DNA of 64,000 bases from an uncultured Alphaproteobacteria bacterium (GTDB taxonomy: Bacteria > Pseudomonadota > Alphaproteobacteria > Acetobacterales > Acetobacteraceae). Shown here piece by piece: positions 9,638-39,454 of this stretch; the stretch's first letter is position 1; every line of letters begins with the position of its first letter. Position numbers and translations under genes: made by a program. The notes under the pieces were generated by a model. It saw nothing but the letters and a program-made list of their open reading frames with translations. It searched no databases and had not been told where the DNA came from. The stretch covers positions 1-64,000 of the forward strand of contig CAVWFK010000036.1 of the NCBI GenBank assembly GCA_963754235.1, in the 5' to 3' direction.

Positions 9638-10042
9638 ATGCCCGATGAGGCGATGCACCGCCTTCTGGACTATGATCGCCGGCGATATTGGCTGGTAAAC
9701 GGTTGGTGCATCCGCTTCCGGGTCGCCGAGGTCGCGGCCACCGCGGCGAGGCCGCACGGCATCAAGTACGCCCTTACGCTGCATGACATAGACGGAACAC
9801 GACTGCTGGGACTCGACAACGCGCACGGCGTCCCGCGTGCGCAGGCCTATGACCACCGGCATCGTTTCCGGCGGGCGGCGGAACCGATCCCTTACGATTT
9901 CCGAGGCGCGGACGAGTTGATCTGCGACTTCTTCGCCGCTGTCGAGCAAGCCTGCAAGCAGGAAGGCGTGCCATTCGAGTTTGAAGCGGAAGACGCTGAG
10001 TTGGAGATGGAGGGCAACGATGACGCGAACGTCCCTGACTGA
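9638..10042 (+). CDS. hypothetical protein, possible toxin component (DUF6516/TumE-like?) of a two-gene cassette
   Basis: ATG preceded by an AT-rich patch 'acatatctttgcttgatatattttgcc'. 'MPDEAMHRLLDYDRRRYWLVNGWCIRFRV..' has mixed composition. Overlaps the next gene by 23 nt. Confidence 0.45.
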   Translation: MPDEAMHRLLDYDRRRYWLVNGWCIRFRVAEVAATAARPHGIKYALTLHDIDGTRLLGLDNAHGVPRAQAYDHRHRFRRAAEPIPYDFRGADELICDFFAAVEQACKQEGVPFEFEAEDAELEMEGNDDANVPD

Positions 10043-10376
10043 GTTGCGGGAGGAGATGCGGGGTGTGACGCGTGGCGAGCGGCAGGCTTCGTCGCTCCCT
10101 GCGGCGCCGCTGCTCGCTGCGCTGTCTCGGGACGCGCTCGACTTGTTGGGCGTCCTGCTGCGGGAACGGCCTGCGAGCGTGACCGAGCTGGTGGCGCTGA
10201 CAGGGCGGGCGCAGCCAAATGTATCCCGGTCGCTGCAATTGCTCGCGAGGCACCGCCTGATCCGATTGGTGCGGGAAGGGCGCGAAGTCAGGCCGGAGCC
10301 GATCGCAAGCGCGGTACGGGTGGACTTGGCGACCGGCACCTATGAGACAACGCCGGCATCGGCAGCGGCGGCCTGA
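10020..10376 (+). CDS. winged-helix (MarR-like) DNA-binding protein, possible antitoxin or regulator
   Basis: '..VTELVALTGRAQPNVSRSLQLLARHRLIRLVREGREV..' HTH. Confidence 0.5.
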   Translation: MTRTSLTELREEMRGVTRGERQASSLPAAPLLAALSRDALDLLGVLLRERPASVTELVALTGRAQPNVSRSLQLLARHRLIRLVREGREVRPEPIASAVRVDLATGTYETTPASAAAA

Positions 10377-10393
10377 CTACCGGGCGCGGCGGC

Positions 10394-10624
10394 TCAGTCG
10401 CCCGCCGAGGCGATCCGGACCCGCGGCTCGGGCCGCACCGCATCCCGCACGGCTTCCTGCCAGTCCTTCGCCAGCGCCGGGTCGGCCGGTGATCCGTCAT
10501 CGAGCAGCGCCATGCCACCGAGCAGCGCGCCGAGCTGGTCGGACCCAGCCAGCGCGTACTGCCGTTCGAGGAACAGCACCATCGCCCGGTAGGCCTGCTC
10601 GGCGGTCAAAGTGGTCTTGCTCAT
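10394..10624 (-). CDS. hypothetical small protein (76 aa), possible immunity or antitoxin partner
   Basis: 'MSKTTLTAEQAYRAMVLFLERQYALAG..'. ATGA overlap with the upstream 103-aa gene. Confidence 0.4.
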   Translation of the reverse strand: MSKTTLTAEQAYRAMVLFLERQYALAGSDQLGALLGGMALLDDGSPADPALAKDWQEAVRDAVRPEPRVRIASAGD

Positions 10625-10932
10625 CGGTCCTCCCGGCGTGGCCGCAGCAGAGCGAGACCACTGCTCGGCGCAAAGTTTCGCGGCTGCGCGTTGACCCCGC
10701 CATTCACGATCTGGCCCGCCCTCGTCTTAACCCAGATTTGGGAGCCGTCGGACCGGTTGCGACCATACCACGCGTTGCCGTACCTGTCCGTGCCTCGAAA
10801 GACGGCGGCATCATTCGCCACCTCCACCAGCAACGCGCGGTTCTCCGGCGTGTCCGGGAGATGTCCCAGATCGGCGCGAAAGATGCGCCGCAACCGACCG
10901 GCGCTCTCGCTCGGCAGCGCGATGGCCGGCAT
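10621..10932 (-). CDS. hypothetical protein (103 aa), possible toxin-like
   Basis: '..FRGTDRYGNAWYGRNRSDGSQIWVKTRAGQIVNGGVN..', globular composition. No family recognised confidently. Confidence 0.4.
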   Translation of the reverse strand: MPAIALPSESAGRLRRIFRADLGHLPDTPENRALLVEVANDAAVFRGTDRYGNAWYGRNRSDGSQIWVKTRAGQIVNGGVNAQPRNFAPSSGLALLRPRREDR

Positions 10933-11612: not shown

Positions 11613-12946
11613 GCGAACGCCGCCCCCAGACCCTCCATCAGTGCCAGGAAGCCCGGAAAGCTGGTGTCGATGAAGCCGGTGTCGTCCACGCGCACCGCCG
11701 CGCGCGACGCGAGCCCCAGCACCAGCGCACTCATCGCGAGCCGATGATCCATTTGCGTCGCGACCAGGCCGCCGCCGGGCGGGGCGCCGTCGCAGCCCTC
11801 GATCACGAGATCGTCGCCCTCGATTGCGACCCGCACCCCGTTTGCCGCGAGCATCGCGGCCGTCGCGGCGAGCCGGTCGCTCTCCTTCACGCGCAGCTCG
11901 CGCAGGCCCCGCAGCCGCGTCGTCCCCCGCGCGCAGGCGGCGGCGACGGCCAGGATCGGGTATTCGTCGATCATGCTCGGCGCCCGCTCCCAGGGCACGT
12001 CGATCGCGCGCAAGCCGCTATGGCTCACCACCAGATCGCCCACCGTCTCGCCGCCTTCGAGGCGCGCGCCCGAGACCGTGATTGCCGCCCCCATCTCCCG
12101 TAGGCAATCCAGCAGCCCGGTCCGCAGCGGATTGAGGCCGATGCCCTCCAGTGTCACCCGCGACCCCTCCACCAGCAGCCCCGCCACCAACGGGAACGCC
12201 GCAGAAGACGGATCGCCCGGCACGATCACGTCGCGCGCGCGCAACTCGGGCTGGCCGCGCAGCCGGATCACCCGGCCCCGCTCGCCGACCGTCTCCACCG
12301 CGATCTCGGCGCCGAAATGGCGCAGCATGTTCTCGCTGTGATCGCGCGTCGCCTCCGGCTCTTCGACGCGGGTTTCGCCGGGCGCGTTCAGCCCGGCCAG
12401 CAGCACCGCCGACTTCACCTGCGCCGAGGGCACCGGCACACGATAATCAAACGGCAGCGCCTCGCGCGCGCCCTCGATCGCGAGCGGCAGGCGCCCGCCA
12501 TCGCGGCCGGCGAAGCGGGCGCCGCAGGCAGCGAGCGGGTCGGTCACGCGGCGCATCGGCCGCCGTCGCAGGCTCGCGTCGCCGGTCATCACCGCGAACA
12601 GGTCGTGGCTCGCCAGGATGCCGCAGAGCAGCCGCGCGGCGGTGCCGGAATTGCCCATGTCCAGCACGTCTTTGGGCTCCGCCAGCCCCCCGATGCCGCG
12701 CCCGGCCACCAGCCAGTCGCCGCCCGGCCGGCACGCGACCTCGGCGCCGAGCGCACGCATGGCGGCCGCCGTGCGCAGCACGTCCTCGCCCTCCAGCAGC
12801 CCGGTGATGCGCGTCTCTCCGACCGCGAGTGCCCCGATCATCAGCGCGCGATGGCTGATCGACTTGTCGCCCGGCACGCGGATGCGCCCGGCGAGCGGCC
12901 GGGCCGGGCGGGAGGCGGCGAGCGGACGGGCGGGCATCGCGGACAT
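11609..12946 (-). CDS. aroA: 3-phosphoshikimate 1-carboxyvinyltransferase
   Basis: '..[22 protein letters not shown]..'. Start ambiguous because of in-frame ATGs inside the upstream tandem repeat. Confidence 0.9.
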
Positions 12947-12997
12947 GGACGGGTCAGGGCGCATGGACGGGTCAGGGCGCATGGACGGGTCAGGGCG
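12944..12997. repeat. 18-bp tandem repeat x3 encoding (RPDPSM)3 at the aroA 5' end
   Basis: 'catggacgggtcagggcg' x3. Each unit carries an in-frame ATG. Confidence 0.7.
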
Positions 12998-13119
12998 CTT
13001 AGCATCCCTCGCGGCGGTTTGACAGGCGAGCAGGCTGCGACGTTTGACAGTCACGCAGGCCGGTGGCATGGCCGCGCCCTCCGCCGGCCCGGCCGGCGTT
13101 GCGCGAAAGATCCCGCCCG

Positions 13120-13490: not shown

Positions 13491-13904
13491 ATGCCCAAGC
13501 TGAATCGCATCGTCGAAACCGCCCTCTATGTTGATGACCTGGAACATGCGGCGCATTTCTACGAATCGAAGCTGGGGCTGGAGCCGCTGCGGAAGGCGGA
13601 GACGCTGTTCGCGTACGACGTCGGCGGGTCGAGCGTTCTGCTGCTTTTCAAACGGGGGGGATCACGGCGAACGCAGACGCTGCCGGGCGGCACAATCCCG
13701 CCGCACGACGGCTCCGGCCCGATCCATATGTGCTTCGCCATCGACGCTGAAGAACTGCCGCGATGGGAAGCCCGCCTTGAAGAACAAGGTATGGAGATTG
13801 AAGGCCGCACGACATGGGATCGCGGCGGGAAGAGCATCTATTTTCGTGATCCGGACGGTCACCTGCTCGAAATGATGACGCCGGGGACGTGGCGGATCTA
13901 CTGA
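13491..13904 (+). CDS. VOC family protein (glyoxalase/bleomycin-resistance/dioxygenase fold)
   Basis: 137 aa, 'ALYVDDLEHAAHFYESKLG..YFRDPDGHLLE'. Confidence 0.75.
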   Translation: MPKLNRIVETALYVDDLEHAAHFYESKLGLEPLRKAETLFAYDVGGSSVLLLFKRGGSRRTQTLPGGTIPPHDGSGPIHMCFAIDAEELPRWEARLEEQGMEIEGRTTWDRGGKSIYFRDPDGHLLEMMTPGTWRIY

Positions 13905-13917
13905 GGGCGCGGCTTCG

Positions 13918-15342
13918 ATGGCGAATTTCGCATTCGAGGGGCAGACCTGGAGCTCTCCAGTCATTACCTGGAGCTTCGAGGACCAGACGTATCCCACCGA
14001 TGCGCGCACGCCGTTCTCGGAGCCAATCTCCAGTCCCTATCAGGCGACTGTGCTCGCCGCGCTGGCGCGCTGGCAGGGGGTCTCCGGCATCGCCTTCGAA
14101 CAGGTGGCGGACAGCCCCAACCCGTCGCAGGCGGCCGACATCCGGATCGGCTTCGCCGCGTTGCCCGGCAGCACTGAGATCGGCGAGACCGATCTGACGC
14201 GGGCACCCGACGGCACCAATTTCCTGCCCGACGTGCTGGTCCGGCTGGAGGATCCGGCATTCGATCCGCTGTTCTCCGACTCCAGCGGCGCGCTCACCTA
14301 CCAGGGCACCGCGACCACGCTCTACCAGGTGGCGCTGCACGAGATCGGCCACGCGCTCGGCCTCAACCATTCCACCGACCCGCACGCCGTGATGTTTCCC
14401 ACCGTCGGGCCGGACAATCCCGACCTCGACGGCTCCGACATCGCCGGCATCGACGTCCTCTATCCGCCGACGGCTCCGCCACCGCCGCCGCCGCCCGTAG
14501 TCGCGGCGGGCAGCCTCTATACCGATGGCGGCCAGAGTGCGGCGATCACCACCGGAACTGGCGCCAATACCGTGGTCGGCTCGGTCGGCAACGACACCAT
14601 CACCACCGGCACCGGCACCAACCTGATCGGCCCCGGCAGCGGCAACGATCTGATCGTCTCGAACGGCGCCGACACGATCTTCCCCGGCGGCGGCTCGAAC
14701 ACCGTGTTCGCGGCCGGGCACGTGCTGGCGGCGGTCGGCGCCAGCACGCTCTTCTTCATCAACGGCAGCCAGAGCAGCACCGTGCTCGGCGGCGGCGCCG
14801 GCAATGCGGTGATCAACGGCGGCGTGGGCGGCGGATTGTTCGCAGCCGGCGCGGGCGGCGGCAGCGTGATCTTCGCCGGTGCCGGCGCGAGCACCATCTT
14901 CGGCGCGGCCAGTGGCGACGTGCTGTTCGCCGGCGGTAGCGCCCCCGACCTGCTGCTCGCCGGCGCCGGCAACGAGACCCTCTCCGGCCTCGGCTCCAGC
15001 GGCGCCAACCAGCTTTACGGCGGCAGCGGCAACGATCTGATCGGCGGCGGGGCGGGGCCCGAAAGCTTCTTCGCCGGCACCGGCAACGACACCTTCATCG
15101 CCGGCAGCGGCGCCGATCTCTATGCATTCAGCAACGGCGCCGCGGGCGGGCAGGATCTGATCGAGGGGTTCAACCAGGGCAAGGGCGATCTGGTGAGCCT
15201 GCAAGGCTACGCCGCGGGTGCCGCCGCGGCGGCGGTCGCCGGGCAGGCCGCCTCGGCTGCCGGCACTACGCTCACGCTCGCCGACAACACCACGATCACC
15301 TTCGCCGGTGTCGGACACCTCTCCACGTCCGCCTTCGCCTGA
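13918..15342 (+). CDS. secreted zinc metalloprotease, matrixin/serralysin-like (M10) domain plus C-terminal RTX repeats
   Basis: 'HEIGHALGLNH' with Met-turn 'AVMFP'. Poly-Pro linker. Gly-rich 'GGSGNDLIGGGAG', 'AGTGNDTFIAGSGAD' beta-roll repeats. The uncleaved hydrophobic C-terminus is typical of T1SS cargo. Confidence 0.8.
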   Translation: MANFAFEGQTWSSPVITWSFEDQTYPTDARTPFSEPISSPYQATVLAALARWQGVSGIAFEQVADSPNPSQAADIRIGFAALPGSTEIGETDLTRAPDGTNFLPDVLVRLEDPAFDPLFSDSSGALTYQGTATTLYQVALHEIGHALGLNHSTDPHAVMFPTVGPDNPDLDGSDIAGIDVLYPPTAPPPPPPPVVAAGSLYTDGGQSAAITTGTGANTVVGSVGNDTITTGTGTNLIGPGSGNDLIVSNGADTIFPGGGSNTVFAAGHVLAAVGASTLFFINGSQSSTVLGGGAGNAVINGGVGGGLFAAGAGGGSVIFAGAGASTIFGAASGDVLFAGGSAPDLLLAGAGNETLSGLGSSGANQLYGGSGNDLIGGGAGPESFFAGTGNDTFIAGSGADLYAFSNGAAGGQDLIEGFNQGKGDLVSLQGYAAGAAAAAVAGQAASAAGTTLTLADNTTITFAGVGHLSTSAFA

Positions 15343-15369
15343 CCGACAAGGCCGGCAGGAGGTAAAGAC

Positions 15370-15771
15370 ATGCGTGCGATTCCGCTGGGAGTGAAGGGAA
15401 GCTTCACGCTCGCCGTCGCGCCCGCGCACTTGGCCAACCAGTTCAAGGATGCCACGCTGCCGCCGGTGCTGGCGACTCCCATGATGATCCTGGCGATGGA
15501 GAATGCGGCGCTCAACGCCATTCGCGACTATCTGGAACCCGGCGAGAGTGCCGTCGGCACGGCGGTCGATATCCGCCACCTCGCGGCGACGCCGGTCGGG
15601 CAGCGCGTGACGGCAGAGGCGGAAGTCATCAAGGTCGAAGGCCGACGGATCGTCTTCGCAGTAACCGCACGTGACGAGGTCGAGGACATCGGCAGGGGCA
15701 TCCATGAACGGATGGTGGTCGACGTCCACCGCGTAACACAGCGCCTGAACGCTAAGAGCAATCGGGGATAG
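15370..15771 (+). CDS. hotdog-fold thioesterase family protein
   Basis: 133 aa, 4HBT/FlK-like '..RRIVFAVTARDEVEDIGRGIHERMVV..'. Confidence 0.7.
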   Translation: MRAIPLGVKGSFTLAVAPAHLANQFKDATLPPVLATPMMILAMENAALNAIRDYLEPGESAVGTAVDIRHLAATPVGQRVTAEAEVIKVEGRRIVFAVTARDEVEDIGRGIHERMVVDVHRVTQRLNAKSNRG

Positions 15772-16085
15772 ACGAATTCGTCGATGCCGGTCCCGAACTT
15801 CAGGTCCTCATACAGACGCTCCGCGCCCCGGAGATGCCGCTCATTGCACGGCCAGCGCACAGCCCCCATTTGCAGGATCAACTCGTAGGTCAAGCCCGAA
15901 TAGTCGCACGGCCGGCCCTTCGACACCTTGCGCCATTCCTCGAACGCATCCCTGGGCTCCGTGAAGGGGATCAGCGGGGCTCCGTCGCGATCCTTGAAGT
16001 CCAACTTATTGGCCACCTCTACCTTCTCGATCGCATCGTACCGTGACCATTCGAGTCCGTTCCCCTCGCGTTCAGAAACCCAGAC
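15772..16085 (-). pseudogene. relic of a molybdopterin (Mo-bisPGD) oxidoreductase C-terminal domain (assimilatory nitrate reductase/formate dehydrogenase-like)
   Basis: Minus frame 'RDAFEEWRKVSKGRPCDYSGLTYELILQMGAVRWPCNERHLRGAERLYEDLKFGTGIDEFVYP' with GC3 about 85%. No start or stop; both flanks run into the antisense of neighbouring genes. Confidence 0.5.
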
Positions 16086-16089
16086 CCGC

Positions 16090-16095
16090 AAGGAG
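16090..16095 (+). promoter_or_regulatory. Shine-Dalgarno AAGGAG upstream of the DyP GTG start
   Basis: 'gcAAGGAGcgacgcGTG'. Confidence 0.5.
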
Positions 16096-16101
16096 CGACG
16101 C

Positions 16102-17148
16102 GTGCCATCCACAATTCCGCAACCGGTCGTCGCGCAGCTCACCCGCGCCGCTATTTTTCTCGTCGTGACGGTGAACTCCGGGCCGGGACATGATGTCACC
16201 GTGCGGACCTTGTGTGGTGATGTGGCTGCTCTTTTGCGCGCCGTGGGCTTCCGTGCCCTCGACGGTCGGCTGTCATGTGTCATGGGGCTTGGCTCCGACG
16301 CATGGGACCGGCTCTTCGGTGTGCCGAAGCCGAAAGAATTGCATCCGTTCCGTGAAATCCGCGGCCGGCATCACGCCGTCGCTACGCCGGGCGACATCCT
16401 CTTTCATATCCGCGCCACGCGTATGGATCTGTGCTTCGAACTGGCGACACAGATCATGTCGCGGCTGAGCGGCGCAGTCTCCACGGTGGACGAAGTGCAT
16501 GGCTTCAACTACTTCGATGATCGTGACCTGATCGGTTTCGTGGACGGGACGGAGAACCCCGTGGAGCAGGCGGCGATTGACGCCACCATCATCGGCGAGG
16601 AGGATGCGGCGTTTGCCGGTGGGAGTTACGCGATCGTACAAAAGTACGTTCATGACCTAAAGGGATGGAACGCGCTGCCCGTTGAGGAGCAAGAGAGAAT
16701 TATCGGCAGACTCAAGCTGTCCGACATCGAACTGGACGATAGCGTGAAGCCAACCTCCGCGCACAATGCCTTGACGACGATTATTGAAGACGGAAAACAG
16801 CTGGAGATCGTGCGCGACAACATGCCGTTCGGCGACGTGGGGAAGGGGGAGTTCGGTACCTATTTCATCGGTTATGCCCGCTCCCCGCGGCGGATCGAGC
16901 AGATGCTCGTGAACATGTTTGTCGGCCGGCCAGCCGGCAACTATGACCGGCTTTTGGATTTCAGCCGCGCCGTCACTGGCACGCTGTTTTTTGTGCCGTC
17001 CGCGACGTTTCTGGAGAATGTGGTGGCCGCCGGGGGCGCGGCTCCAGCGATGACCGGCCCGCCTGCGAACGGAGGTGAGGCGGAGGCCAAATCCGTCCCC
17101 GGATGGTTCACTCGGAATCGGCTCGCTGAAGAACAGAGGCAAGACATG
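16102..17148 (+). CDS. DyP-type peroxidase (DypB-like encapsulin cargo), C-terminal cargo-loading peptide out of frame
   Basis: GTG start. Strong similarity along the DyP domain ('..FVDGTENP..GGSYAIVQKYVHDL..DNMPFGDVG..GTYFIGYA..GTLFFVPS'). The targeting peptide 'DGSLGIGSLKNRGKT*' is encoded in the +1 frame at about 17102-17148, with TGA overlapping the encapsulin ATG. As written, the frame reads through into the encapsulin. Confidence 0.8.
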
Positions 17149-17952
17149 AACAATCTCCATCGGGAACTCGCCCCGATCTCCGATAAGGCATGGGAGCAGA
17201 TCGAAGAGGAGGCGTCGCGCACCCTCAAGCGCCACTTGGCGGCGCGGCGTGTCGTGGACGTGCTGGGCCCGAAGGGTCCCGAATTGTCGGCGGTCGGCAC
17301 CGGCCACCTCCGGCAGATCACGACGCCGGGCGATGGAATCCAAGCTGCGGCACGCGAGGCGAGGGCGCTCGTGGAATTGCGCGTTCCGTTCGATCTGACG
17401 CGCCAGGCGATTGACGATGTAGAGCGCGGCGCACTGGATTCAGACTGGTCGCCACTGAAGGTCGCGGCACGCAAAATTGCCTTCGCCGAAGACCACGCTG
17501 TCTTCGAAGGCTATGCCCCTGGGCAGATTCAGGGTTTCCGTCAAGGCACCAGCAACCCGACTTTGATGCTCCCGGCGGATGCGTGGAACTATCCGGATAC
17601 GGTCGCGCAGGCGGTAAGCCAATTACGCCTCGCCGGCGTCGATGGTCCCTATGTGCTCGTGCTGGGCGCCAATCCGTACACTGCAATCAGCGGAGCCAGT
17701 GCTGAGGGCTATCCGGTTCTGGAGCACATCCGGCGTCTCGTGGAGGGAGAGATCGTTTGGGCCCCAGCCATCGAGGGAGGTTTGGTACTGACCACCCGCG
17801 GCGGTGATTTTGAGTTGCACATCGGTCAGGACATCTCTATCGGTTACCTGAACCATTCTGAAGCCCTTGTTCAACTGTACCTGCAGGAAACCTTCGCGTT
17901 CCTGCTGCTGACAGCGGAAGCGTCCGTAATGCTCGCACCCCCGGAAAAATGA
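17146..17952 (+). CDS. family 1 encapsulin nanocompartment shell protein
   Basis: 'MNNLHRELAPISDKAWEQIEEEASRTLK..' 268 aa, HK97-fold encapsulin. Confidence 0.9.
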   Translation: MNNLHRELAPISDKAWEQIEEEASRTLKRHLAARRVVDVLGPKGPELSAVGTGHLRQITTPGDGIQAAAREARALVELRVPFDLTRQAIDDVERGALDSDWSPLKVAARKIAFAEDHAVFEGYAPGQIQGFRQGTSNPTLMLPADAWNYPDTVAQAVSQLRLAGVDGPYVLVLGANPYTAISGASAEGYPVLEHIRRLVEGEIVWAPAIEGGLVLTTRGGDFELHIGQDISIGYLNHSEALVQLYLQETFAFLLLTAEASVMLAPPEK

Positions 17953-18006
17953 ACGGTCGGAGCATTTGCCTGACACCACAACGATGACCTTGTTCGCGGC
18001 AGCCCC

Positions 18007-18765
18007 TCACGCTCCTTGGCGCTTGACCGTGAGCGGGCCGGACGCCTGGCAGGTGGGCATCACCTCCAGCCGGTTGACGTTCACCCGCGCCGGCAGCGAA
18101 ATGACCCAGGCGACCGTCTCGGCGATGTCCTCGGGCGTCAGCGGGTCGGCCCCGGCGTAGAAGGCGCGCGCCCGTTCAAGGTCGCCGCCGAAGCGGACGG
18201 CGCTGAACTCGGTGCCGCCGACCAGCCCCGGTTCCAGATCGGTCACGCGCACGCCGGTCCCCACCAAATCGGCGCGCAGGTTGAGGCTGAACTGCCGCAC
18301 GAACGCCTTCGACGCGCCGTACACGTGCCCGCCCGGATACGGGTAGGTGCCGGCCGTGCTGCCGATGTTCACCACGTGCCCGCGATCGCGCGCGACCATG
18401 CCGGGCAGCAGCGCGCGCGTGACGTGCAGCAGGCCCAGCACATTGACCTCCACCATCCGGTCCCAATCCGCGAGCTTGGCCACCGGGGCCGGATCGAGGC
18501 CGAGGCCAAGGCCCGCGTTGTTGACCAGCACATCGACCTCGCGCCAACCCTCGGGCAGGCTTTCGGGCAGCGCCGCGACGGCGTCGTGCTCGGTCACGTC
18601 GAGCGCGAACGGGAGGAAACGCACGCCCAGCTCGCGGCCGAGCGCTTCCAGCCGGTCCAGCCGCCGGGCGGCGCCGATCACGCGCTGCCCGTCGGCCACG
18701 AGACGGCGCGCGATCGCTGTGCCGAACCCGGCGCTGGCGCCGGTGACCAGGATGGTGCGGGTCAC
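18007..18765 (-). CDS. SDR family NAD(P)-dependent oxidoreductase (YdfG-like)
   Basis: 'ILVTGASAGFGTAIARRL', 'YGASKAF'. GTG start overlaps the ohr stop. Confidence 0.8.
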   Translation of the reverse strand: MTRTILVTGASAGFGTAIARRLVADGQRVIGAARRLDRLEALGRELGVRFLPFALDVTEHDAVAALPESLPEGWREVDVLVNNAGLGLGLDPAPVAKLADWDRMVEVNVLGLLHVTRALLPGMVARDRGHVVNIGSTAGTYPYPGGHVYGASKAFVRQFSLNLRADLVGTGVRVTDLEPGLVGGTEFSAVRFGGDLERARAFYAGADPLTPEDIAETVAWVISLPARVNVNRLEVMPTCQASGPLTVKRQGA

Positions 18766-19172
18766 GCGACTTCGAGCTTGACGTCGATGTTGCCGCGCGT
18801 CGCCTTCGAATACGGGCAGACCTGGTGCGCCTCTTGCATCAGCTTCTCGGCGGTCGCGCGATCGATCCCGGGCAGCGAGCCGCGCAGCTTGACCGCGAGG
18901 AAGAAGCCGCTGTCGTTCTTGTCGATGGTGACGTCGGCGGTGACGCGGATCTCCTTCGGTTGCACCTTCGCCTGGCTCGCGACCAGACCCAGCGCGCCGC
19001 CGAAGCAGGCGGAGTAGCCGGCGGCGAACAGATCCTCGGGGTTGCCGGCGCCGGGCTTGCCGGAGCCGCCCAGCTCCTTCGGCATGGCGAGGTCGAGCTT
19101 CACCACGCCGTCGCTGCTCTCGACATGGCCGTTGCGGCCGGCGACCGAGGTGGCGCTTGCGGTATAGGCCAT
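18762..19172 (-). CDS. ohr: organic hydroperoxide resistance protein (Ohr/OsmC family)
   Basis: 136 aa '..FAAGYSACFGGALG..VCPYSKATRGNIDV'. Confidence 0.9.
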   Translation of the reverse strand: MAYTASATSVAGRNGHVESSDGVVKLDLAMPKELGGSGKPGAGNPEDLFAAGYSACFGGALGLVASQAKVQPKEIRVTADVTIDKNDSGFFLAVKLRGSLPGIDRATAEKLMQEAHQVCPYSKATRGNIDVKLEVA

Positions 19173-19238
19173 GCGTTCGCTCCTGTTGTTGCGTGCGGTT
19201 GTTGCGTGCAGGGGGGAGGTGGGGTTCCTCTGCCGCGT

Positions 19239-20201
19239 GTGAAACCCGTCGCATTCTTCCACGGCGCGCATCCCGGTGCCAATGCGGCGCTGCTGCTTGG
19301 GCCCCGGCCGGTGCTGGTGGATAGCGGCTTCGGCAGCCAGACGGACGCGCTCGCCGCCTGGCTGCGCGGGCAGGGTGCGGCACCCGAACGGCTGGCGCTG
19401 GTGGTCAACACCCACCACCACAGCGATCACGTCGGCGGCAATGTTCTGTTCCACCGCCTCGGCGTGCCGATCGCGGCGCACGAAGCCGATGCCGCGCTTG
19501 TGAACGCGCGTGACCCGGACGCGTGCAGTGCCGCGTGGCTGCGCCAGCCGGTGCCGCCCTATGCGGTGGCGCGGCCGCTGGCGGAGGGCGACGAGATCGA
19601 CACCGGCGCCGCGGTCTGGCGGGTGCTGCACACGCCCGGCCACACGTTCGGCCATATCAGCCTGTGGTGCGCGCGGGCGCGAATGTTGATCGCGGGCGAC
19701 ACGGTGCATGCCGAGGATGTCGGCTGGCTCGCGCCCTGCCGCGACGGGCCGCGGACGCTCGCGTGGATGCGCGCAAGCGTGGCGCGCCTCGCGGCACTGG
19801 ACGTGAGCGTGTCGCTGTCCGGCCACGGTCCGCCCTGCCGCGACTTCGCCGCCGCCTGCGCCGTTGCCGAGATGCGGCTGGCGCGCTGGGAACGCGAGCC
19901 GGAGCGAATGGCGCGGCACGCCTGCAAGCGCGTGTTCGCCTCGGCGCTGATGATTGCGGGCGGGATGACGGAGGCGGGATTGCGCGCGCATTTGCTCGGC
20001 GCGCCGTGGTTTTGCGATCACGCGCGGGCGGCGTTCGGCGTCGAGCCGGCGGAGTTCGTGGCGCCGATGATCGCCGAGATGCTGCGCTCCGGCGCGGCCG
20101 AGTGGCGTGCGGGCCGGCTGGTGGCGACGGCACCGCACGACGTGGTGCCGGCGGGCTGGGCCGCTTCGGTGCCGATGCCGGCGGATTGGCCGCCGCAATG
20201 A
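19239..20201 (+). CDS. MBL-fold metallo-hydrolase
   Basis: 'NTHHHSDHVGGN' motif. GTG start, about 321 aa. Confidence 0.7.
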   Translation: MKPVAFFHGAHPGANAALLLGPRPVLVDSGFGSQTDALAAWLRGQGAAPERLALVVNTHHHSDHVGGNVLFHRLGVPIAAHEADAALVNARDPDACSAAWLRQPVPPYAVARPLAEGDEIDTGAAVWRVLHTPGHTFGHISLWCARARMLIAGDTVHAEDVGWLAPCRDGPRTLAWMRASVARLAALDVSVSLSGHGPPCRDFAAACAVAEMRLARWEREPERMARHACKRVFASALMIAGGMTEAGLRAHLLGAPWFCDHARAAFGVEPAEFVAPMIAEMLRSGAAEWRAGRLVATAPHDVVPAGWAASVPMPADWPPQ

Positions 20202-20202
20202 A

Positions 20203-21024
20203 TTAGGGATTCGATTCTTTGTTATACCGCTCGAACATCGCGGCGGCGATTTCCGGGCTGCTCGGCCACTGGCCGCGCCGTTGCCCGGCATGGGTCTGAT
20301 AAGTGTCCAGCCGGTCGGGGTCGGGCTGCACCACCTTGCCCGCTTGCAGGAACAGCAAACCCGCCTTGTCGGTCGGCATCCGCGCAACAAAGGCGTCGGC
20401 GTCGTCAAGAACCTGCCGCAAGCGCGTCATGGTCGCGGCAGGGTCAACGGGCGGGTCGCTCGCCACGCGCCGGAAATCCGCTTCCGTGTAGCGGCCAAGG
20501 CGGCGAACCTCGTTGATAAGCCCCTCCGGCGTAAAGCCGAGCGACTTGCCGACGGCGGCCCACACCACGGCCCCAAGCGGCAGAACGCGGTCATGGATCG
20601 TCAGCAAGTCCACCACGTCGCGCGGCTCCCGCCGTCCGGCCGCGGCCATCACCTTGTTGGTGGCGAGGTCAACCGGATGCAGCACATAGCCGAATGCCTC
20701 GTCCGGCATCGTCGGGAAAAACCGGTAGTCGGCGTCAACCGCCCATTCCAGCTTCGTCGTCTCGCCGCCTTTTCGGGCAACGACCGCATACATCGCCGGC
20801 TCGCGCCGCAGCCATTGCAGTTCGAAGCCGTCGGCCTGCAATGTGGCGCCATCTTCCTGCACCGCGCGCGCCACCCGTTCCTCGCGGTCGTGGAAAACGT
20901 CGATGTCGCCGGAATAACGCGGCGCGTCCCGGTTCAAAGGAGTGCTGCCCGCGACATAGCTTTCCGGGTCGCGGTGCGCGGCGAGCAAGCGCAGGATATC
21001 CGATTGAATTCTAGTGAGGGGCAC
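20203..21024 (-). CDS. AbiEii/AbiGii-type (DUF1814) nucleotidyltransferase toxin-family protein
   Basis: '..YVAGSTPLNRDAPRYSGDIDVFHD..' NTase signature. GTG start overlapping the upstream small ORF. Confidence 0.6.
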   Translation of the reverse strand: MPLTRIQSDILRLLAAHRDPESYVAGSTPLNRDAPRYSGDIDVFHDREERVARAVQEDGATLQADGFELQWLRREPAMYAVVARKGGETTKLEWAVDADYRFFPTMPDEAFGYVLHPVDLATNKVMAAAGRREPRDVVDLLTIHDRVLPLGAVVWAAVGKSLGFTPEGLINEVRRLGRYTEADFRRVASDPPVDPAATMTRLRQVLDDADAFVARMPTDKAGLLFLQAGKVVQPDPDRLDTYQTHAGQRRGQWPSSPEIAAAMFERYNKESNP

Positions 21025-21226
21025 GGCACGCGTTCTCGATCTGCTCCGCCAGCCGCCGCGCCCGCAGGTCGCCTTCTACCCGCAGGCTGCGGGTAATCGC
21101 GAGCGCATCTGCGGGTGTCGGCTCGGGCACCGGACGGCTGCTCCATAAGGCGGTTGCCCCGAAATCCGCAAACGCCTGCCGGTAGAGCGTCGCAAAATCC
21201 TCCGCCTGTCCTGGTTCCTTGCTCAT
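21011..21226 (-). CDS. small hypothetical protein (71 aa), possible cognate antitoxin
   Basis: ATG with SD 'taAGGAcgccATG' behind an AT-rich promoter-like patch (21227-21300). 14-nt overlap with the NTase gene. Confidence 0.4.
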   Translation of the reverse strand: MSKEPGQAEDFATLYRQAFADFGATALWSSRPVPEPTPADALAITRSLRVEGDLRARRLAEQIENACRAPH

Positions 21227-21375
21227 GGCGTCCTTAATACCAACTCGCTGATGGAGCTGAAATAAATGGCTGTTCTTGCTTATCATGCAAGGGACGTCGG
21301 CGCTTCCGCCGTCAGGCCGGGAACGGTCGCGAGTCTGTGCCGCGCCTCGCGGATGCGCTTCCGCCGCGGCTCCCC

Positions 21376-21449
21376 GAGCGTCCTTCCCCACCCCTCGGCA
21401 CCCAGCCACGCTACCCGCCCGGCCGCGATCGTGGCGGCCACGCGCGGCG
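21376..21449. repeat. about 75-bp direct repeat, copy 1 (duplicate of the phnM-like 3' end)
   Basis: About 92% identical to 22226-22300. Still encodes '..PRVAATIAAGRVAWLGAEGWGRTL' out of any gene context. Confidence 0.6.
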
Positions 21450-21505
21450 CGTTCCAGCGAACACTGTCCAGGGACGAAGGCCACGCGCCTTTCCTTCTGC
21501 CCATG

Positions 21506-22133: not shown

Positions 22134-22191
22134 CTTGATCTCCCGGTATGGATATACATGCGAAGAAATGTGTATCCAAGGGCGCGGCAAA

Positions 22192-23380
22192 TCAACGGAA
22201 AGGTGCTGCATTGCAGGCGGACCCGGCGAGCGTCCTTCCCCACCCCTCGGCGCCCAGCCACGCCACCCGCCCGGCCGCGATCGTGGCGACGAGGCGCGGC
22301 GTGGCCCCCCGCATCGGCGACCAGCAGCAGATCGGCGCGCTTGCCGGCCGCGATCGTGCCGCGATCGGCGAGCCCGCAGGCTGCCGCCGGATTGGCCGAA
22401 ACGAGCCGCCACGCCGCCGCCAGATCGCGCACGCCACGCGACGCCAGCACGAACGCCGCGCGCAGCATCGCCGGATAGAAATAGTCGCTGGAGAGCACGG
22501 TGCAGAGTCCGGCCTCGGCGAGCCGCGCCGCCGACGCCCAGCCGAGATGCGAGCGCCCGCGCACCACGTTGGGGCTGCCCATCACCACCCAGTCGCCCGC
22601 TTCGCGCGCGGCCTCGGCGACCGCCTCCGCCATCGGGAACTCGCAGATGCGCGCGCCGCGGGCGCGGAAGGCGGCGCGCGTCGCGATGCTTTCGTCGTCG
22701 TGGCTCGCCATCGGCAGCCCGGCCGCTCGCGCCGCCGCCGCGATCGCGTCGAGCCCGGCCGGAACGGCACCGGCACCCCTCTCCACCCTGGCCGCGAGCG
22801 CGCGGAACGCCTCAAGCGTCATGCCGGCGCGCTCGCCGTATTTCGCGCCCAACACCGGGTCGGCGATCCGGCGCAGGATCGTCGGCGTGTGGTCGTTGAA
22901 CGCCAGCAGATGCACGCGGCCGCCGGCAATGTCGGCGCGCGCCATGTCGAGTGCCGCGACGTTGAACGCCTCCCAGCGCAGATGGATGCGCATGTCGCAC
23001 ACGGCGCGTGCGCGGTGCGCCTCCATCGCGTCGAGCAGCGCGCGCCACGTCTCGGCACCACGCAGCCCGGGCTCCCAGGAGAGCGTGACACCGTGATAGG
23101 CGGTGGTGATGCCGTTCGCCAGCAGCTGCGCTTCGGTATCGGCCAGCGCGACGGACGGCGGAAAATCCACGCCCGGCCGCGGCTGCAATTGCCGCTCGAA
23201 CGCATCGCCGTGGATATCGACGATGCCGGGCAGCACCAGCAGGCCGCGCGCATCGATCGCGCAACCGGCCTCGGCACACCCGATGGCCGCGATCCGACCC
23301 TCGGCCAGCAGCAGATCGGCCGTTTCCCAATTCCCCTCGCCGAGCAGCAGGCGGCCGCCGATGACACCGAGCGGCGTCAC
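22192..23380 (-). CDS. phnM: PhnM-like amidohydrolase (second phnM copy), apparent -1 frameshift near a C6 run at about 22305-22310
   Basis: '..PGIVDIHGDAFERQ..GKRADLLLVADAGG' in one frame. The expected C-terminus '..PRLVATIAAGRVAWLGAEGW..*' is in another frame (ORF 22192..22437). GTG start overlaps the phnF stop. Confidence 0.7.
22226..22300. repeat. about 75-bp direct repeat, copy 2 (native phnM-like 3' end)
   Basis: See copy 1. The two copies bracket vapBC. Confidence 0.6.
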
Positions 23381-24120
23381 GGCTCGCACACGATCTGCAC
23401 GCGCGGCGTCGGATAGCGGGCCAGGCAGAACTCGATCACGCGCCCGTCGCGATCGACGTTGACGTTCTCGCACACCAGCAGCGGCCGCGAGCGCGGCATC
23501 CTCAGCAGCCGTACCTCCTCCGCATTCGGCAGCCGCGCGGTCACGCGCGTCACCTGGCGCAGATAGTCGGCAACTCCGACCCGCCGCAGGGCGGCGGTGA
23601 TCGAAGGCGTCTCGTGCAGCGCCGCCAGCAGCCCGGGCAGGCGGGCGGCGGGGAAATGGTGCGAACCGAGGCTGACCGGCCGCGCATCGGCAAAGCCGAG
23701 GCGCTCCATCAACACGACCCGCCCGCGCGCGCGCAGGCCGAGGGCGGACGCGACCTCGCGCTCGGCCGGCACTTCGGCAAGCCGCAGCACCTGGCCCGAG
23801 GGTTCCTTGTTGTGGCGGCGGATCCATTCCGAGAAGCGCGTGCGGGGCGAGACGTTGTACTCGAGCACGTCTTCGGCCACGAAAGCGCCGCGGCCCTGCT
23901 CGACCCGCACCAGGCCGCCGCGCGACAGCTCTTCCATCGCCCGGCGCACGGTATGGCGATTGACGCCGAAGCGAGAAGCGAGCTGCGCCTCGGTGGGCAG
24001 CCGCGCGCCGGGCGCCGCGCCGCCCGTGATCTCGCGCCCCAGCGTCTCGGTAATGCGCCGCCACACGGCGACCCCGCGCGCCGTGCCGAGCGCCGGTTCG
24101 GGGATTGGAATGTCACTCAA
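23377..24120 (-). CDS. phnF: phosphonate metabolism transcriptional regulator PhnF (GntR/UTRA)
   Basis: '..EAQLASRFGVNRHTVRRAMEEL..' HTH plus UTRA domain. TTG start. Confidence 0.85.
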   Translation of the reverse strand: MSDIPIPEPALGTARGVAVWRRITETLGREITGGAAPGARLPTEAQLASRFGVNRHTVRRAMEELSRGGLVRVEQGRGAFVAEDVLEYNVSPRTRFSEWIRRHNKEPSGQVLRLAEVPAEREVASALGLRARGRVVLMERLGFADARPVSLGSHHFPAARLPGLLAALHETPSITAALRRVGVADYLRQVTRVTARLPNAEEVRLLRMPRSRPLLVCENVNVDRDGRVIEFCLARYPTPRVQIVCEP

Positions 24121-24154
24121 GGAACGTGGCCATTATTGGCATTGCAGCAATACC

Positions 24155-24283
24155 GTCATGGTCGGCGAAGGCCGACCATCCACGTCTTTCGTGACGCGGC
24201 AAAGTCGTGGATGCTCGGCCGGAGCCTGTCCTCGGGCGGGCCTTCGGCCCGACCCGGGGGCCGAGCATGACGGGCTGGTTAGA
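24155..24283. repeat. MITE/REP-like element copy B (long form) in the phnF/phnG divergent region
   Basis: Near-identical to copy A. Confidence 0.6.
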
Positions 24284-24342
24284 GCGATCGCTCCGGGCAT
24301 TGCGACTTGACGCTTAACGGAGAGGCGTCTAGCTGTCTAGAC

Positions 24343-24810
24343 ATGTCGGACGAGCCCGCAACGACAAACGAAATCGCCGCGCGGCAGCGCTGGATGGCGG
24401 TGCTGGCCCGCGCTTCCGCCGCCGAGATCGAGCGATTGCTGGCCGGCGCCCCTGCCCTCTCCGCGCACACCCGCCTGCGCGGGCCGGAAACCGGGCTCGT
24501 GATGCTGCGCGGCCGCGCCGGCGGCAGCGGGGCCGCGTTCAATCTGGGCGAGACGACCGTCACGCGATGCAGCGTGCGCAACGCCGAGGGCCGCGTCGGC
24601 CATGCCACGATCGCCGGCCGCGACCTGCGCGCCGCCGAGCTCGCGGCGGCGCTGGACGCGGCGCTGCAAGATGCCGCGCGGCGAGCGGTGCTGGAGGCGG
24701 CGGTGCTCGCACCCCTCGCGGCGGCGCAGGCAGCGCGGCGCGCGGCGCAGGCACGGCGCGCGGCGGCGACGCGGGTGCAGTTCTTCACGCTCGCGACGAT
24801 GCGCGCATGA
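24343..24810 (+). CDS. phnG: C-P lyase subunit PhnG
   Basis: 'MSDEPATTNEIAARQRWMAVLA..'. Confidence 0.85.
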   Translation: MSDEPATTNEIAARQRWMAVLARASAAEIERLLAGAPALSAHTRLRGPETGLVMLRGRAGGSGAAFNLGETTVTRCSVRNAEGRVGHATIAGRDLRAAELAAALDAALQDAARRAVLEAAVLAPLAAAQAARRAAQARRAAATRVQFFTLATMRA

Positions 24811-25382
24811 GCCTCGAACAGCCGGGCTTCGCCGATCCGGTCGCGGGCGCGCAATCCTGCTTCCGCGCGGTGCTCGACGCGATGGCGCGTCCGGGCCGCG
24901 TGCAGGCGGCGGGCGCCGGCCTTACCCCGCCCGCGCCGCTCGATCCGGCGACCGCCGCGGTGCTGCTGACGCTCGTGGACCCCGAGACGCCGCTCTCTCT
25001 GCCCGCCGCGGCGGCACCGGCGGCCGAGTGGATTGCTTTCCACTGCGGGGCGCCGGTCGTGCCGCGCATCGCCGAGGCGAGCTTCGTGCTCCGCTTCGAT
25101 CTGCCTGATTTCGCAACCTTGCAGGTAGGCACTCACGAGATGCCGGAACGCGGCGCCACGCTGATCCTGCAACTGCCGGCCCTCGGCAGCGGCGCCGCGC
25201 TCCACCTCGCCGGTCCCGGCCTCGCCGCCCCGGCACTCCTGCGCGCGACCGGCCTGCCCGGGGATTTCGCGGCGCGCTGGGCCGCCAACCACGCGCGGTT
25301 TCCGTGCGGCGTCGATCTCATCTTGTGCAGCGGCACCATGCTTGCCGCCCTGCCGCGCAGCGTCACGGTGGCGGCGGTCTGA
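24807..25382 (+). CDS. phnH: C-P lyase subunit PhnH
   Basis: 'MSLEQPGFADPVAGAQSCFRAVLDAMARPG..'. ATGA overlap. Confidence 0.85.
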   Translation: MSLEQPGFADPVAGAQSCFRAVLDAMARPGRVQAAGAGLTPPAPLDPATAAVLLTLVDPETPLSLPAAAAPAAEWIAFHCGAPVVPRIAEASFVLRFDLPDFATLQVGTHEMPERGATLILQLPALGSGAALHLAGPGLAAPALLRATGLPGDFAARWAANHARFPCGVDLILCSGTMLAALPRSVTVAAV

Positions 25383-26485
25383 TGGCCTATGTCGCGGTCA
25401 AGGGCGGCGAGCGCGCGATCGAGGCCGCCCACGCCTGGCTCGCCGAGGAGCGGCGCGGCGATCCCGAATTGCCGGATGTGTCCACCGGGCAGATCGCCGA
25501 GCAGCTTGGCCGCGCGGTTGATCGGGTGATGGCGGAGGGATCGCTGTACGATCCCGGCCTCGCGGCACTCGCGATCAAGCAGGCGCAGGGCGATCTGATC
25601 GAGGCCGCGTTCCTGCTGCGCGCCTACCGCACCACGCTGCCGCGCTTCGGCGCCTCCGAGCCGGTGCGCACCGAGGCGATGGCGGTGCGCCGGCGCATCT
25701 CGGCGGTGTTCAAGGACCTGCCCGGCGGCCAGGTGCTCGGACCGACGACCGACTACACGCACCGGCTGCTCGATTTCGCGCTCGCGGCCGGCTCGACGCC
25801 GCCTGCCCCGCCTCAAGCTGTCGCGCCTCAAGCAATCGCCGAGGATGCACCGGCGCCGCGCGTCACCGACATCCTGGGCGGCGAAGGGCTGATCGAAGCG
25901 GACCCGGCAGGCGACGACATGCCCCCCGGCGACCTCACCCGCGACCCGCTGGCCTTCCCCGCGTCGCGCGATCTGCGCTTGCAGGCGCTCGCGCGCGGCG
26001 ACGAGGGATTCCTGCTCGGCCTCGGCTATTCGACTCAGCGCGGCTATGGCAACGCGCACCCGTTCGCGGGCGAGATCCGGATGGGCGAGGTAGCGGTCGA
26101 GATCGTGCCGCCCGAGCTCGGATTTCCGGTGGAGATCGGCACCGTTACGATCACGGAATGCCAGGTGGTGAACCAGTTTCGCGGCTCGAAAACTGTGCCG
26201 CCGCAATTCACCCGCGGCTACGGCCTCGCCTTCGGCCATGCCGACCGGCGCGCGATGGCGATGGCGCTGGTGGATCGCGCGCTGCGCGCCGCGGAGCTGG
26301 GCGAGGACGTGACGGCACCCGCGCAGAGGCAGGAATTCGTGCTGTCGCACTGCGATAACGTAGAAGCGACCGGCTTCGTCGAGCATCTCAAGCTGCCGCA
26401 CTACGTCGATTTCCAGAGCGAGCTGGAGACGATCCGGCGGCTGCGCCGTGACGCCGAGACCGCGATGCCGAAGGCCGCCGAATGA
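25382..26485 (+). CDS. phnI: C-P lyase subunit PhnI
   Basis: 'MAYVAVKGGERAIEAAH..'. Confidence 0.9.
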   Translation: MAYVAVKGGERAIEAAHAWLAEERRGDPELPDVSTGQIAEQLGRAVDRVMAEGSLYDPGLAALAIKQAQGDLIEAAFLLRAYRTTLPRFGASEPVRTEAMAVRRRISAVFKDLPGGQVLGPTTDYTHRLLDFALAAGSTPPAPPQAVAPQAIAEDAPAPRVTDILGGEGLIEADPAGDDMPPGDLTRDPLAFPASRDLRLQALARGDEGFLLGLGYSTQRGYGNAHPFAGEIRMGEVAVEIVPPELGFPVEIGTVTITECQVVNQFRGSKTVPPQFTRGYGLAFGHADRRAMAMALVDRALRAAELGEDVTAPAQRQEFVLSHCDNVEATGFVEHLKLPHYVDFQSELETIRRLRRDAETAMPKAAE

Positions 26486-27321
26486 TGCAGGGCTACAACT
26501 TCGCCTATCTCGACGAGCAGACGAAACGCATGGTGCGCCGCGCGATCCTCAAGGCGGTCGCGGTGCCGGGGCATCAGGTGCCGTTCGGCTCACGCGAGAT
26601 GCCGCTGCCCTATGGCTGGGGAACCGGGGGGATCCAGGTGACGGCCGCGATCCTGGGTGCCTCGGACGTGCTCAAGGTGATCGACCAGGGTGCCGACGAC
26701 ACCACCAACGCGGTCTCGATCCGCCGCTTCTTCGCCCGCACCGCGGGCATCGCCACCACCACGCACACGGCCGATGCGAGCATCATCCAGACCCGCCACC
26801 GCATCCCGGAGGCTAGGCTGCGCGAGGATCAGATCATCGTCTATCAGGTGCCGCAGCCCGAGCCGCTGTACCGGCTCGAGCCGCGCCGCGCCGAAGCCAC
26901 GCGGATGCACGCGCTCGCCGATTACGGCCTGATGCACGTCAAGCTGTACGAGGATGTGTCCCGACTGGGCCAGGTCTCGATCAGCTACGATTATCCGGTG
27001 ATGGTCGCGGGACGCTATCTGGCGTCGCCCTCGCCGATCCCGGCCTTCGACAATCCGAAGATGCACAGGATGCCGGCGGTGCAATTGTTCGGCGCCGGGC
27101 GGGAGAAGCGCATCTATGCGATCCCGCCCTATACCGAGGTCCGCTCGCTCGATTTCGAGGACCATCCGTTCCGGCCCACCCGCGCGCCGCACGCCTGCGC
27201 GTTGTGCGGAGCGGCCGACAGCTATCTCGACGAGGTGGTGACGGATGATCGCGGCGGACGGATGTTCGTCTGCTCCGACACCGATCATTGCGAGCAGCGG
27301 CGCGGGGCGGCGGCGGCGTGA
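26482..27321 (+). CDS. phnJ: C-P lyase catalytic subunit PhnJ
   Basis: 'MMQGYNFAYLDEQTKRM..' with a Cys cluster 'CALCGAADSYLDEV..CSDTDHC'. Confidence 0.9.
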   Translation: MMQGYNFAYLDEQTKRMVRRAILKAVAVPGHQVPFGSREMPLPYGWGTGGIQVTAAILGASDVLKVIDQGADDTTNAVSIRRFFARTAGIATTTHTADASIIQTRHRIPEARLREDQIIVYQVPQPEPLYRLEPRRAEATRMHALADYGLMHVKLYEDVSRLGQVSISYDYPVMVAGRYLASPSPIPAFDNPKMHRMPAVQLFGAGREKRIYAIPPYTEVRSLDFEDHPFRPTRAPHACALCGAADSYLDEVVTDDRGGRMFVCSDTDHCEQRRGAAAA

Positions 27322-28091: not shown

Positions 28092-28117
28092 CCACGCACC
28101 CCTCATGGCCGGCGAAT

Positions 28118-28278: not shown

Positions 28279-28287
28279 AATTGCGGC

Positions 28288-31760: not shown

Positions 31761-31813
31761 GGCCGCTCCGTGCCTCCCGCCTGGATCGCCACGCCGCCCA
31801 GCGGCGGCTCGCG

Positions 31814-35214: not shown

Positions 35215-35217
35215 AGC

Positions 35218-39428: not shown

Positions 39429-39454
39429 AACGGTCATCACCTAAGGCAGCCGCT

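Follow-up and report, generated by a model that had tools for sequence, protein, structure and literature searches.

DyP is described as a peptide-loaded cargo in the Andreas and Giessen census of encapsulins, where the only natural N-terminal fusions of cargo to shell protein are those of Flp, in Archaea, and of a diheme cytochrome, in anammox bacteria (PMC8346489). The amount of DyP carried is modest, since a T=1 shell of 60 subunits holds on average 12 molecules (range 6-18), as one to three hexamers (PMC10960027). In enterobacteria DyP-encapsulin operons are transposon-borne; in E. coli the operon is present in 36 of 5426 genomes, with 25 plasmid and 17 chromosomal locations, and is flanked by insertion sequences (IS) (PMC11623594). 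A different type of example comes from a stretch of 64,000 nucleotides of an uncultured member of the Acetobacteraceae (contig CAVWFK010000036.1, positions 1 to 64,000; the whole stretch is referred to below as the window). Its block at 13491-20201 includes DyP and a family 1 encapsulin in a single open reading frame (ORF). As read from the DNA, this frameshifted DyP-encapsulin operon, which translates as a cargo-shell fusion, is the one noteworthy defect, or curiosity, of the stretch.

The single frame, apparent from both the ORF list and the translation, occupies 616 codons of the plus strand (16102-17952) from the DyP start, a GTG at 16102 with AAGGAG six bases upstream (16090-16095), to the encapsulin stop. 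Its DyP part matches model TIGR01413 at 285.8 bits (cut-off 100.5) and both Dyp_perox_N and Dyp_perox_C of Pfam, and the GXXDG motif, proximal His and distal Arg are readable in the translation. The encapsulin coding part (268 aa; 17146-17952, plus strand) matches NF041155 at 341.5 bits (cut-off 100) and PF04454 with an E-value of 1.3e-93 (Linocin_M18, HK97-fold). Chains in the PDB match residues 4-316 as DyP (E 7.7e-144) and residues 349-615 as shell (E 1e-112), in each case separately and over the whole folded length of that half, and no PDB chain covers both halves. An earlier, sequence-only reading of this DNA had spoken of a DyP-encapsulin pair, and both domains are indeed present, but in one open frame instead of two separate genes. 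The encapsulin ATG is intact, with a Shine-Dalgarno-like AGAGG at 17135-17139 and a 6-nt spacer. It is the cargo-loading peptide that is displaced. This peptide, DGSLGIGSLKNRGKT followed directly by a stop (17102-17149, plus strand; core DGSLGIGSLK), appears in the frame-2 translation, a frame other than that of the DyP body, and its TGA overlaps the encapsulin ATG (as ATGA).

In the closest relative found (L001; 93.4% nucleotide identity over window positions 16702-17965), DyP, peptide and stop are all in one frame and the linker is 14 nt longer. Where L001 has GCCAAA-GCCAATTCGCAATTG-CCGTCCCC, the window has GCCAAAT-CCGTCCCC; the net 14-nt loss is thus within 17089-17101 (plus strand) of the DyP linker, with the gap placed between 17092 and 17093 and a CCC-G at 17098-17101. 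The targeting peptide and its stop are out of the DyP frame because of this loss relative to L001. As the flanking AAA and CCCC runs are of equal length in the two sequences, the difference is not a homopolymer miscount. Among related loci with an adjacent DyP, body, peptide and stop share a frame in 76 of 79; the three exceptions have the peptide out of frame or the ORF fused (fusion in one of the 79), and all are in metagenome-assembled genomes (MAGs) of the MFD series.

We infer from this alignment that the indel is present in the organism, and its effects on the protein would then be as follows. A patch cut from a widely transferred DyP-encapsulin-molybdoenzyme module may have undergone a net loss of 14 nt in the disordered DyP linker, with a shift of frame as the result. 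Ribosomes that initiate at the DyP GTG would bypass the peptide and its stop and read on into encapsulin, yielding a DyP::encapsulin chimera of about 66 kDa with some 40 disordered residues between its DyP and encapsulin domains. Since normal loading needs docking of the peptide inside the shell, peptide-mediated loading of DyP would be lost. Given some 12 DyP per shell, shells made of chimeric subunits alone are implausible, and at best a few chimeric subunits could co-assemble with free shell protein derived from the retained internal start, on which any function would depend.

The patch itself, about 2.2 kb from 15772 to around 18000, has a GC content of 0.61, and GC at third codon positions (GC3) is 0.73 for DyP and 0.70 for encapsulin versus 0.88-0.92 for the adjoining native genes. 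The encapsulin is 92% identical at the amino acid level to that of L001 and 76-80% identical to copies in Reyranella, other Acetobacteraceae, Tepidisphaeraceae, Acidobacteriota and Binataceae (at least four phyla). In L002, L003, L007, L011 and L019 an intact molybdopterin oxidoreductase gene is downstream of encapsulin and convergent with it, and this companion is 88-94% identical between Alphaproteobacteria and Acidobacteriota. All that the window retains of it is an internal fragment, on the other side and abutting the DyP ribosome-binding site (15777-16094, minus strand; Fdh-alpha/NasC-like per NCBIfam). Positions 15777-16022 are 85% identical in protein sequence to residues 496-577 of the 778-aa oxidoreductase of L003 (11063-13399; tblastn, E 2e-41), and L007 and L019 extend the match to about 16094, the fragment corresponding to about residues 470-577 of 778. 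The molybdoenzyme relic proposed from the sequence alone is, on this evidence, real. Likeness to the regions upstream of relatives' DyP genes starts just 10-21 nt before the start codon, from which it follows that the native DyP promoter is gone, with a gene fragment in its place.

The order DyP, encapsulin, convergent oxidoreductase recurs in Reyranella, Acetobacteraceae, Roseiarcus and Acidobacteriota (e.g. L003 8950-13399). Judged by gene order and identity, the three genes appear to form a transferable module that differs from the FDH-DyP-Enc-RpoH operon of enterobacteria. A tie between the molybdoenzyme of the window and the 'FDH' of that operon was considered and rejected, the E. coli gene being an NAD-dependent FDH of a different family, on the same strand and upstream. 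Also in contrast to the enterobacterial operons, the patch has no flanking transposase. Its flanks show only chance-level direct or inverted repeats, no tRNA genes or Rfam matches were found in the window, and no integrase was found by the Pfam scans, which took in the majority of genes called in the 64-kb window and, the phn cluster apart, every short or medium ORF. Immediately 5′ of the relic is a gene for an FlK-type hotdog thioesterase (133 aa; 15370-15771, plus strand; PF22636, E 7.8e-37). Its GC3 is 0.80, and it is possibly imported as well. An FlK-type thioesterase of 66% amino acid identity is directly upstream of DyP also in L015 (2538-4820, a Casimicrobiaceae MAG); this shared adjacency (window 15370-17952) may be coincidental or may belong to a module of older date.

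How often such fusions occur elsewhere is pertinent. A search with the fused sequence of 5.8 billion proteins yielded, among the matches listed, about 26 ORFs with both domains. All are singletons on single contigs, several have garbled internal stretches, and at most of their junctions the targeting peptide is read in the wrong frame. When 1.84 billion cluster representatives were searched exhaustively with HMMER, the best 150 matches included no full-length fusion, and the top match was an ordinary 357-aa DyP. The architecture is therefore not kept among relatives, singleton fused ORFs being all that was found. Its sporadic appearance is attributable to the overlap of the shell start with the cargo stop and to a GC-rich linker with few stops in the other frames, features that cause most frame shifts in the linker to yield a fused ORF.

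The interpretation we favor, with confidence somewhat better than even, is of a recent lesion in an acquired and decaying DyP-encapsulin operon: a missing promoter, an adjoining gene fragment and a frame shift make a recently damaged, decaying import the simplest reading. Several features weigh against it. No damage is seen in the codons of the targeting peptide, in the encapsulin gene or in the catalytic motifs of DyP, so that the lesion is either very recent, not real, or tolerated. The ratio of nonsynonymous to synonymous substitution (dN/dS) for encapsulin between the window and L001 is 0.31, with 0.26 for an intact control pair, i.e. there is no detectable relaxation. The position of the molybdoenzyme fragment is circularly permuted. 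L001, the only close comparator, is itself flawed, being chimeric at 9543 and having an in-frame stop in encapsulin (10385-10390). (In L001 1-9543, a poly-A run and DNA of 29-47% GC abut the DyP gene at 9543; its truncated DyP was considered as a sign of decay and rejected, as the contig is chimeric there.) Elsewhere in the window an SGL (SMP-30/gluconolactonase) gene (53140-54026, plus strand) is split into two ORFs, covering profile positions 1-72 and 93-246, with the frame shift in non-homopolymer sequence at about 53445-53470, just after the stop of the first ORF. This fits real pseudogenes or occasional assembly errors alike, and so is a further caution. The main rival to a recent lesion is a sequencing or assembly artefact, the organism having a canonical two-gene operon with its peptide in frame, and to this we give a substantial minority probability. 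The restriction of the three irregular relatives to MFD-series MAGs, the mostly singleton and in several cases garbled state of the database fusions, the second split gene and the undamaged peptide codons are all as expected for an artefact; however, a 14-nt non-homopolymer difference beside AAA and CCCC runs of equal length is atypical of platform error. In addition, the GGT and TPP enzyme genes, fragmented in the long-read MAG L127, are intact in the window, which points to an assembly of high quality, and perfect 13-nt and 18-nt tandem duplications (see below) show that genuine slippage indels occur in this genome.

Were the deletion both real and useful, the product would be a functional covalent fusion in which some subunits carry DyP at their lumen-facing N-terminus, on a linker of about 40 residues, and free encapsulin from the internal ATG makes up the rest of the shell; encapsulation of DyP would then need no targeting peptide. 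Both domains being intact and in frame, the retention of the encapsulin start and its Shine-Dalgarno-like motif, and the internalization of N-terminal cargo in natural Flp- and cytochrome-fusion encapsulins (PMC8346489) are compatible with this. Yet it is improbable, as the architecture is kept in no relative, a gene fragment stands where the promoter region used to be, the active form of DyP is a hexamer, and a 1:1 fusion demands 60 DyP per T=1 shell when 6-18 are observed (PMC10960027). Recoding offers another way in which the arrangement could be productive, and one to which hardly any credence is given. A +1 slip at the CCC-G of 17098-17101, with Pro CCC re-pairing as CCG, would give ...KSVP-DGSLGIGSLKNRGKT and termination, exactly restoring the canonical peptide and its stop, while unshifted ribosomes would make the fusion. 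CCC-N sites are prone to +1 slippage (tRNA-Pro, EF-P). Here, though, the site lacks a stop codon, rare codon or Shine-Dalgarno element that would stimulate slippage, a frameshift is conserved in no relative, and L001 has the same CCCCGG string while in frame, which rules it out as a derived signal. The preferred explanation is still that an acquired, decaying operon was recently damaged.

The setting of the patch is also informative. As the window is about 70% GC, genes were called by codon bias, and the called genes were named with Pfam and NCBIfam profile models; every gene that the sequence-only reading had named in 13491-20201 was recovered. The encapsulin, fused ORF, Ohr and M10 protein have no exact-sequence match in the contig collection. 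Upstream of the block is core genome (pyrF, LapA, HU, sppA, rpsA, cmk, aroA, FYDLN), in an order also present in L081, L082, L128 and L130. The best AroA match is 84% identical, the named matches are from Acetobacteraceae and Rhodopila, and AroA match P0177 is not on the L001 contig. What follows FYDLN varies: an RND pump in L081 and L082, MFS and ABC genes in L130, and in L128, the closest by AroA, an M10 orthologue with 64% amino acid identity directly after FYDLN with no VOC gene between. From this adjacency the M10/RTX protease is taken to be native. In the window the two are separated by a gene for a VOC/glyoxalase-fold protein (137 aa; 13491-13904, plus strand; PF00903, E 3.8e-15), which scores below every Fos-family cut-off of NCBIfam. 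The VOC gene is probably an insertion, given its absence from that place in L128 and its low GC3 (0.72, with 0.89-0.92 for its neighbors).

The M10 protein (474 aa; 13918-15342, plus strand) has a catalytic domain of matrixin type, HEIGHALGLNHS (PF00413, E 3.4e-18), and RTX-like repeats (PF00353, E 1.3e-13). The zinc motif HEXXHXXGXXH and the Met-turn are present, the glycine-rich RTX repeats are C-terminal to the catalytic domain, and the translation has no N-terminal signal peptide. A CCG run of 10.7 copies (14464-14495) encodes a poly-proline hinge between the protease domain and the repeats. In its zinc motif, Met-turn, RTX repeats and lack of a signal peptide the protein resembles the serralysin-type (M10B) proteases exported by type I secretion systems (T1SS), from which it differs in that its catalytic domain matches the matrixin model PF00413 and that there are no secretion genes in the window. 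The proposal that it is of T1SS type is thus sound for architecture, i.e. the repeats and the missing signal peptide. It falters on two counts: the score with serralysin model NF035945 is 43.1 bits for a cut-off of 500, with no Peptidase_M10_C match, and there are no T1SS genes (ABC, MFP, OMP) in the window as scanned with Pfam. A metagenome scan with the M10/RTX protein gave only distant or fragmentary relatives, none beside another gene of the block.

On the other side of the patch, beyond a convergent spacer of 54 bp (17953-18006), are genes for a YdfG-like SDR (252 aa; 18007-18765, minus strand; NF007829 344 bits, below its cut-off of 411), for Ohr (136 aa; 18762-19172, minus strand; TIGR03561 172.8 bits, cut-off 88.85) and for an MBL-fold hydrolase with an HHHSDH motif (320 aa; 19239-20201, plus strand; PF00753, E 1.1e-24). 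L127 matches window positions 18002-20194 at 92.2% nucleotide identity, with SDR, Ohr and MBL in unchanged order, but its homology stops 5 nt past the SDR stop and an IS5-type transposase, not encapsulin, follows. L124, 97% identical in nucleotide sequence in SDR, diverges about 6 nt after the same stop. With L001 homology ending at 17965 and that of L127 beginning at 18002, there is a synteny breakpoint at 18002. The ohr-SDR pair, with its 4-nt overlap, is kept in the more distant Acetobacteraceae L125 and L126 beside other neighbors. By these comparisons both the ohr-SDR operon and the MBL gene divergent from it are native.

The match with L127 continues further to the right, with gaps at an AbiEii-like pair (20195-21500), at 22183-28950, at an IS110 element (30126-31843) and at MNT/HepT. 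The AbiEii-like pair, a nucleotidyltransferase gene and an upstream 157-aa ORF (20203-21484, minus strand), is by the same alignment an insertion relative to L127. The assignment to AbiEii is weak (PF08843 at 20.7 bits, below the cut-off of 22.5; PADLOC AbiEii, E 0.0017). The DyP-encapsulin patch, the VOC gene and the AbiEii-like pair are each absent from the corresponding place in relatives. Composition is a mosaic rather than atypical across the block, GC3 being 0.72 for VOC, 0.80 for FlK, 0.79 for the AbiEii-like gene and within 0.70-0.80 for relic, DyP and encapsulin, and 0.88-0.92 for M10 (0.89), SDR, Ohr and MBL. Synteny and composition together indicate that the block is a mosaic at the junction of two conserved segments of an Acetobacteraceae chromosome, not one functional island.

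That conclusion bears on the suggestion, made from the sequence alone, of a horizontally assembled stress island. Horizontal pieces and toxin-antitoxin (TA) surroundings are borne out, the TA genes being the AbiEii-like gene and its partner and a PIN (VapC) gene with an AbrB/MazE-type antitoxin ORF on the right, TumE on the left, and MNT/HepT further to the right; a single coherent peroxide-defense island is not. In comparisons of synteny the sub-blocks are kept separately, in L127 and in L128, and not as a unit. Ohr and DyP both reduce peroxides, TA and IS elements are close by and some of the genes are atypical in composition, so that co-regulation of Ohr, encapsulated DyP and MBL in a horizontally assembled peroxide-stress island has some appeal. 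It is nevertheless very unlikely. Ohr, SDR and MBL are native, and their order is unchanged in the close relative L127, which lacks DyP-encapsulin beside them. Conversely, an Ohr or MBL homologue is within 10 kb in none of the 79 related DyP-encapsulin loci with an adjacent DyP, from which the neighborhood of Ohr and DyP appears to be a one-off juxtaposition at the breakpoint at 18002. The two units are convergent, which makes a shared promoter impossible, the loading tag of DyP is out of frame, the Pfam scans of most called genes of the window gave neither an OhrR nor an OxyR gene, and no AT-rich operator repeat upstream of ohr could be seen by eye. No link of MBL to peroxide defense was found, its protein being below every NCBIfam cut-off. 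The intervening gap is exactly 54 bp, as had been noted; as a terminator it fails, there being no terminator-like hairpin in a sequence that folds no better than shuffled versions (z +1.24 and -0.20).

Ohr itself appears conventional. Aligned to PDB 1usp it keeps the Arg, Glu and both Cys, with GR, NPE..AGYSACF and VCPYS motifs, and in having Arg, Glu and two catalytic Cys it resembles the Ohr of the Ohr/OhrR loci of Xanthomonas, Pseudomonas and Deinococcus (PDB 1n2f, 1usp). It differs from those loci in that no OhrR/MarR gene is adjacent and the partner is a YdfG-like SDR. The 4-nt overlap that couples ohr to a YdfG-like 3-hydroxy-acid dehydrogenase gene (window 18007-19172) is present also in L124, L125, L126 and L127. 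As far as gene order can tell, ohr-SDR is a translationally coupled pair that takes the place of the usual ohr-ohrR pairing in Acetobacteraceae. Neither a MarR-family/OhrR nor an OxyR/LysR gene emerged from the Pfam scans of the window. The OhrR/OxyR-type operators whose presence had been envisaged were not seen either, the ohr leader being GC-rich with no AT-rich inverted repeat apparent by eye, an inspection rather than a formal operator scan. The leader is conserved with that of L127 save for a perfect 13-nt tandem duplication, GTTGTTGCGTGCG (19185-19209; 1.9 copies, 100% identity by TRF), that occurs only in the window, L127 having a single copy. The duplication follows a conserved promoter-like site (19282-19253, minus strand) and precedes the ribosome-binding site.

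Other features of the window reflect its mobility and its repeats. A perfect 18-nt tandem repeat of 3.1 copies (12944-12998) is at or just upstream of the aroA start and, if translated, gives MRPDPS three times. The gap between cmk and rpsA holds TumE and two small ORFs in the window (9638-10932), PhdYeFM-PIN in L081 and L082 (12067-12724) and DUF6726 in L128 (3896-4060); from this variety it looks like a recurrent insertion site for TA modules. L127 lacks the MNT/HepT toxin-antitoxin pair of nucleotidyltransferase and ribonuclease (34942-35592, plus strand; MNT part, PADLOC PDC-S09). The IS110-family element (30126-31843; transposase 30618-31649, minus strand) is between a phnM-like amidohydrolase gene and a DUF1045 gene, where L127 has no element. 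The genes at 22183-28950 (an amidohydrolase gene, phnF, and C-P lyase genes that start with phnG and extend to phnL) have no counterpart in L127, where little separates a VapBC module from the phnM-like gene. Repeats of about 70-100 nt occupy intergenic positions at 935-1006, 24152-24220, 28154-28221, 39324-39452, 53023-53108 and 62607-62713, and in L127 at 587-690; since they match in both orientations, they are palindromic and REP- or MITE-like.

In a broader context, the apparent theme of a stress island is a chance neighborhood, brought about when DNA was inserted at a break in synteny next to the native ohr operon. The DyP-encapsulin copy shows that such operons travel with a molybdoenzyme gene from one soil phylum to another. 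It shows, too, that with the cargo stop overlapping the shell start a single indel in the disordered linker makes one cargo-shell ORF out of two genes. For a real lesion, the 'fusion encapsulin' that annotation pipelines would list is probably a defect. Should the 14 nt truly be missing and the organism tolerate this, the product would be the first natural peroxidase-fusion encapsulin, and a working fusion would reveal a simple evolutionary route to such proteins. In that event the window would offer a snapshot of a one-step origin of fusion encapsulins, e.g. the archaeal Flp-fusions, from overlapping cargo and shell genes.

With the family 1 DyP operons of Klebsiella pneumoniae, E. coli and Mycobacterium (PDB 8u4z/8u50, 9e5e; PMC10960027, PMC11623594) the window shares a DyP immediately upstream of a 268-aa shell gene, the ATGA overlap of stop and start, an encoded ...DGSLGIGSLK motif and horizontal mobility. 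It departs from them in that the peptide is out of frame, with DyP and shell in one ORF. The companion gene differs too, being a molybdopterin oxidoreductase in the soil clade (in the window a fragment, on the other side) and an NAD-dependent FDH with RpoH in enterobacteria. The Flp-fusion encapsulins of Pyrococcus furiosus and Sulfolobus, and the diheme cytochrome c fusion of anammox bacteria, likewise have N-terminal cargo on a family 1 shell protein in one polypeptide, an arrangement that would place cargo in the lumen (PMC8346489). Those fusions are conserved across clades and have T=3 shells and small cargo domains, whereas the fusion in the window would join a 36-kDa hexamer-forming enzyme to a shell of T=1 type, is unique to this sequence and retains a vestigial targeting peptide.

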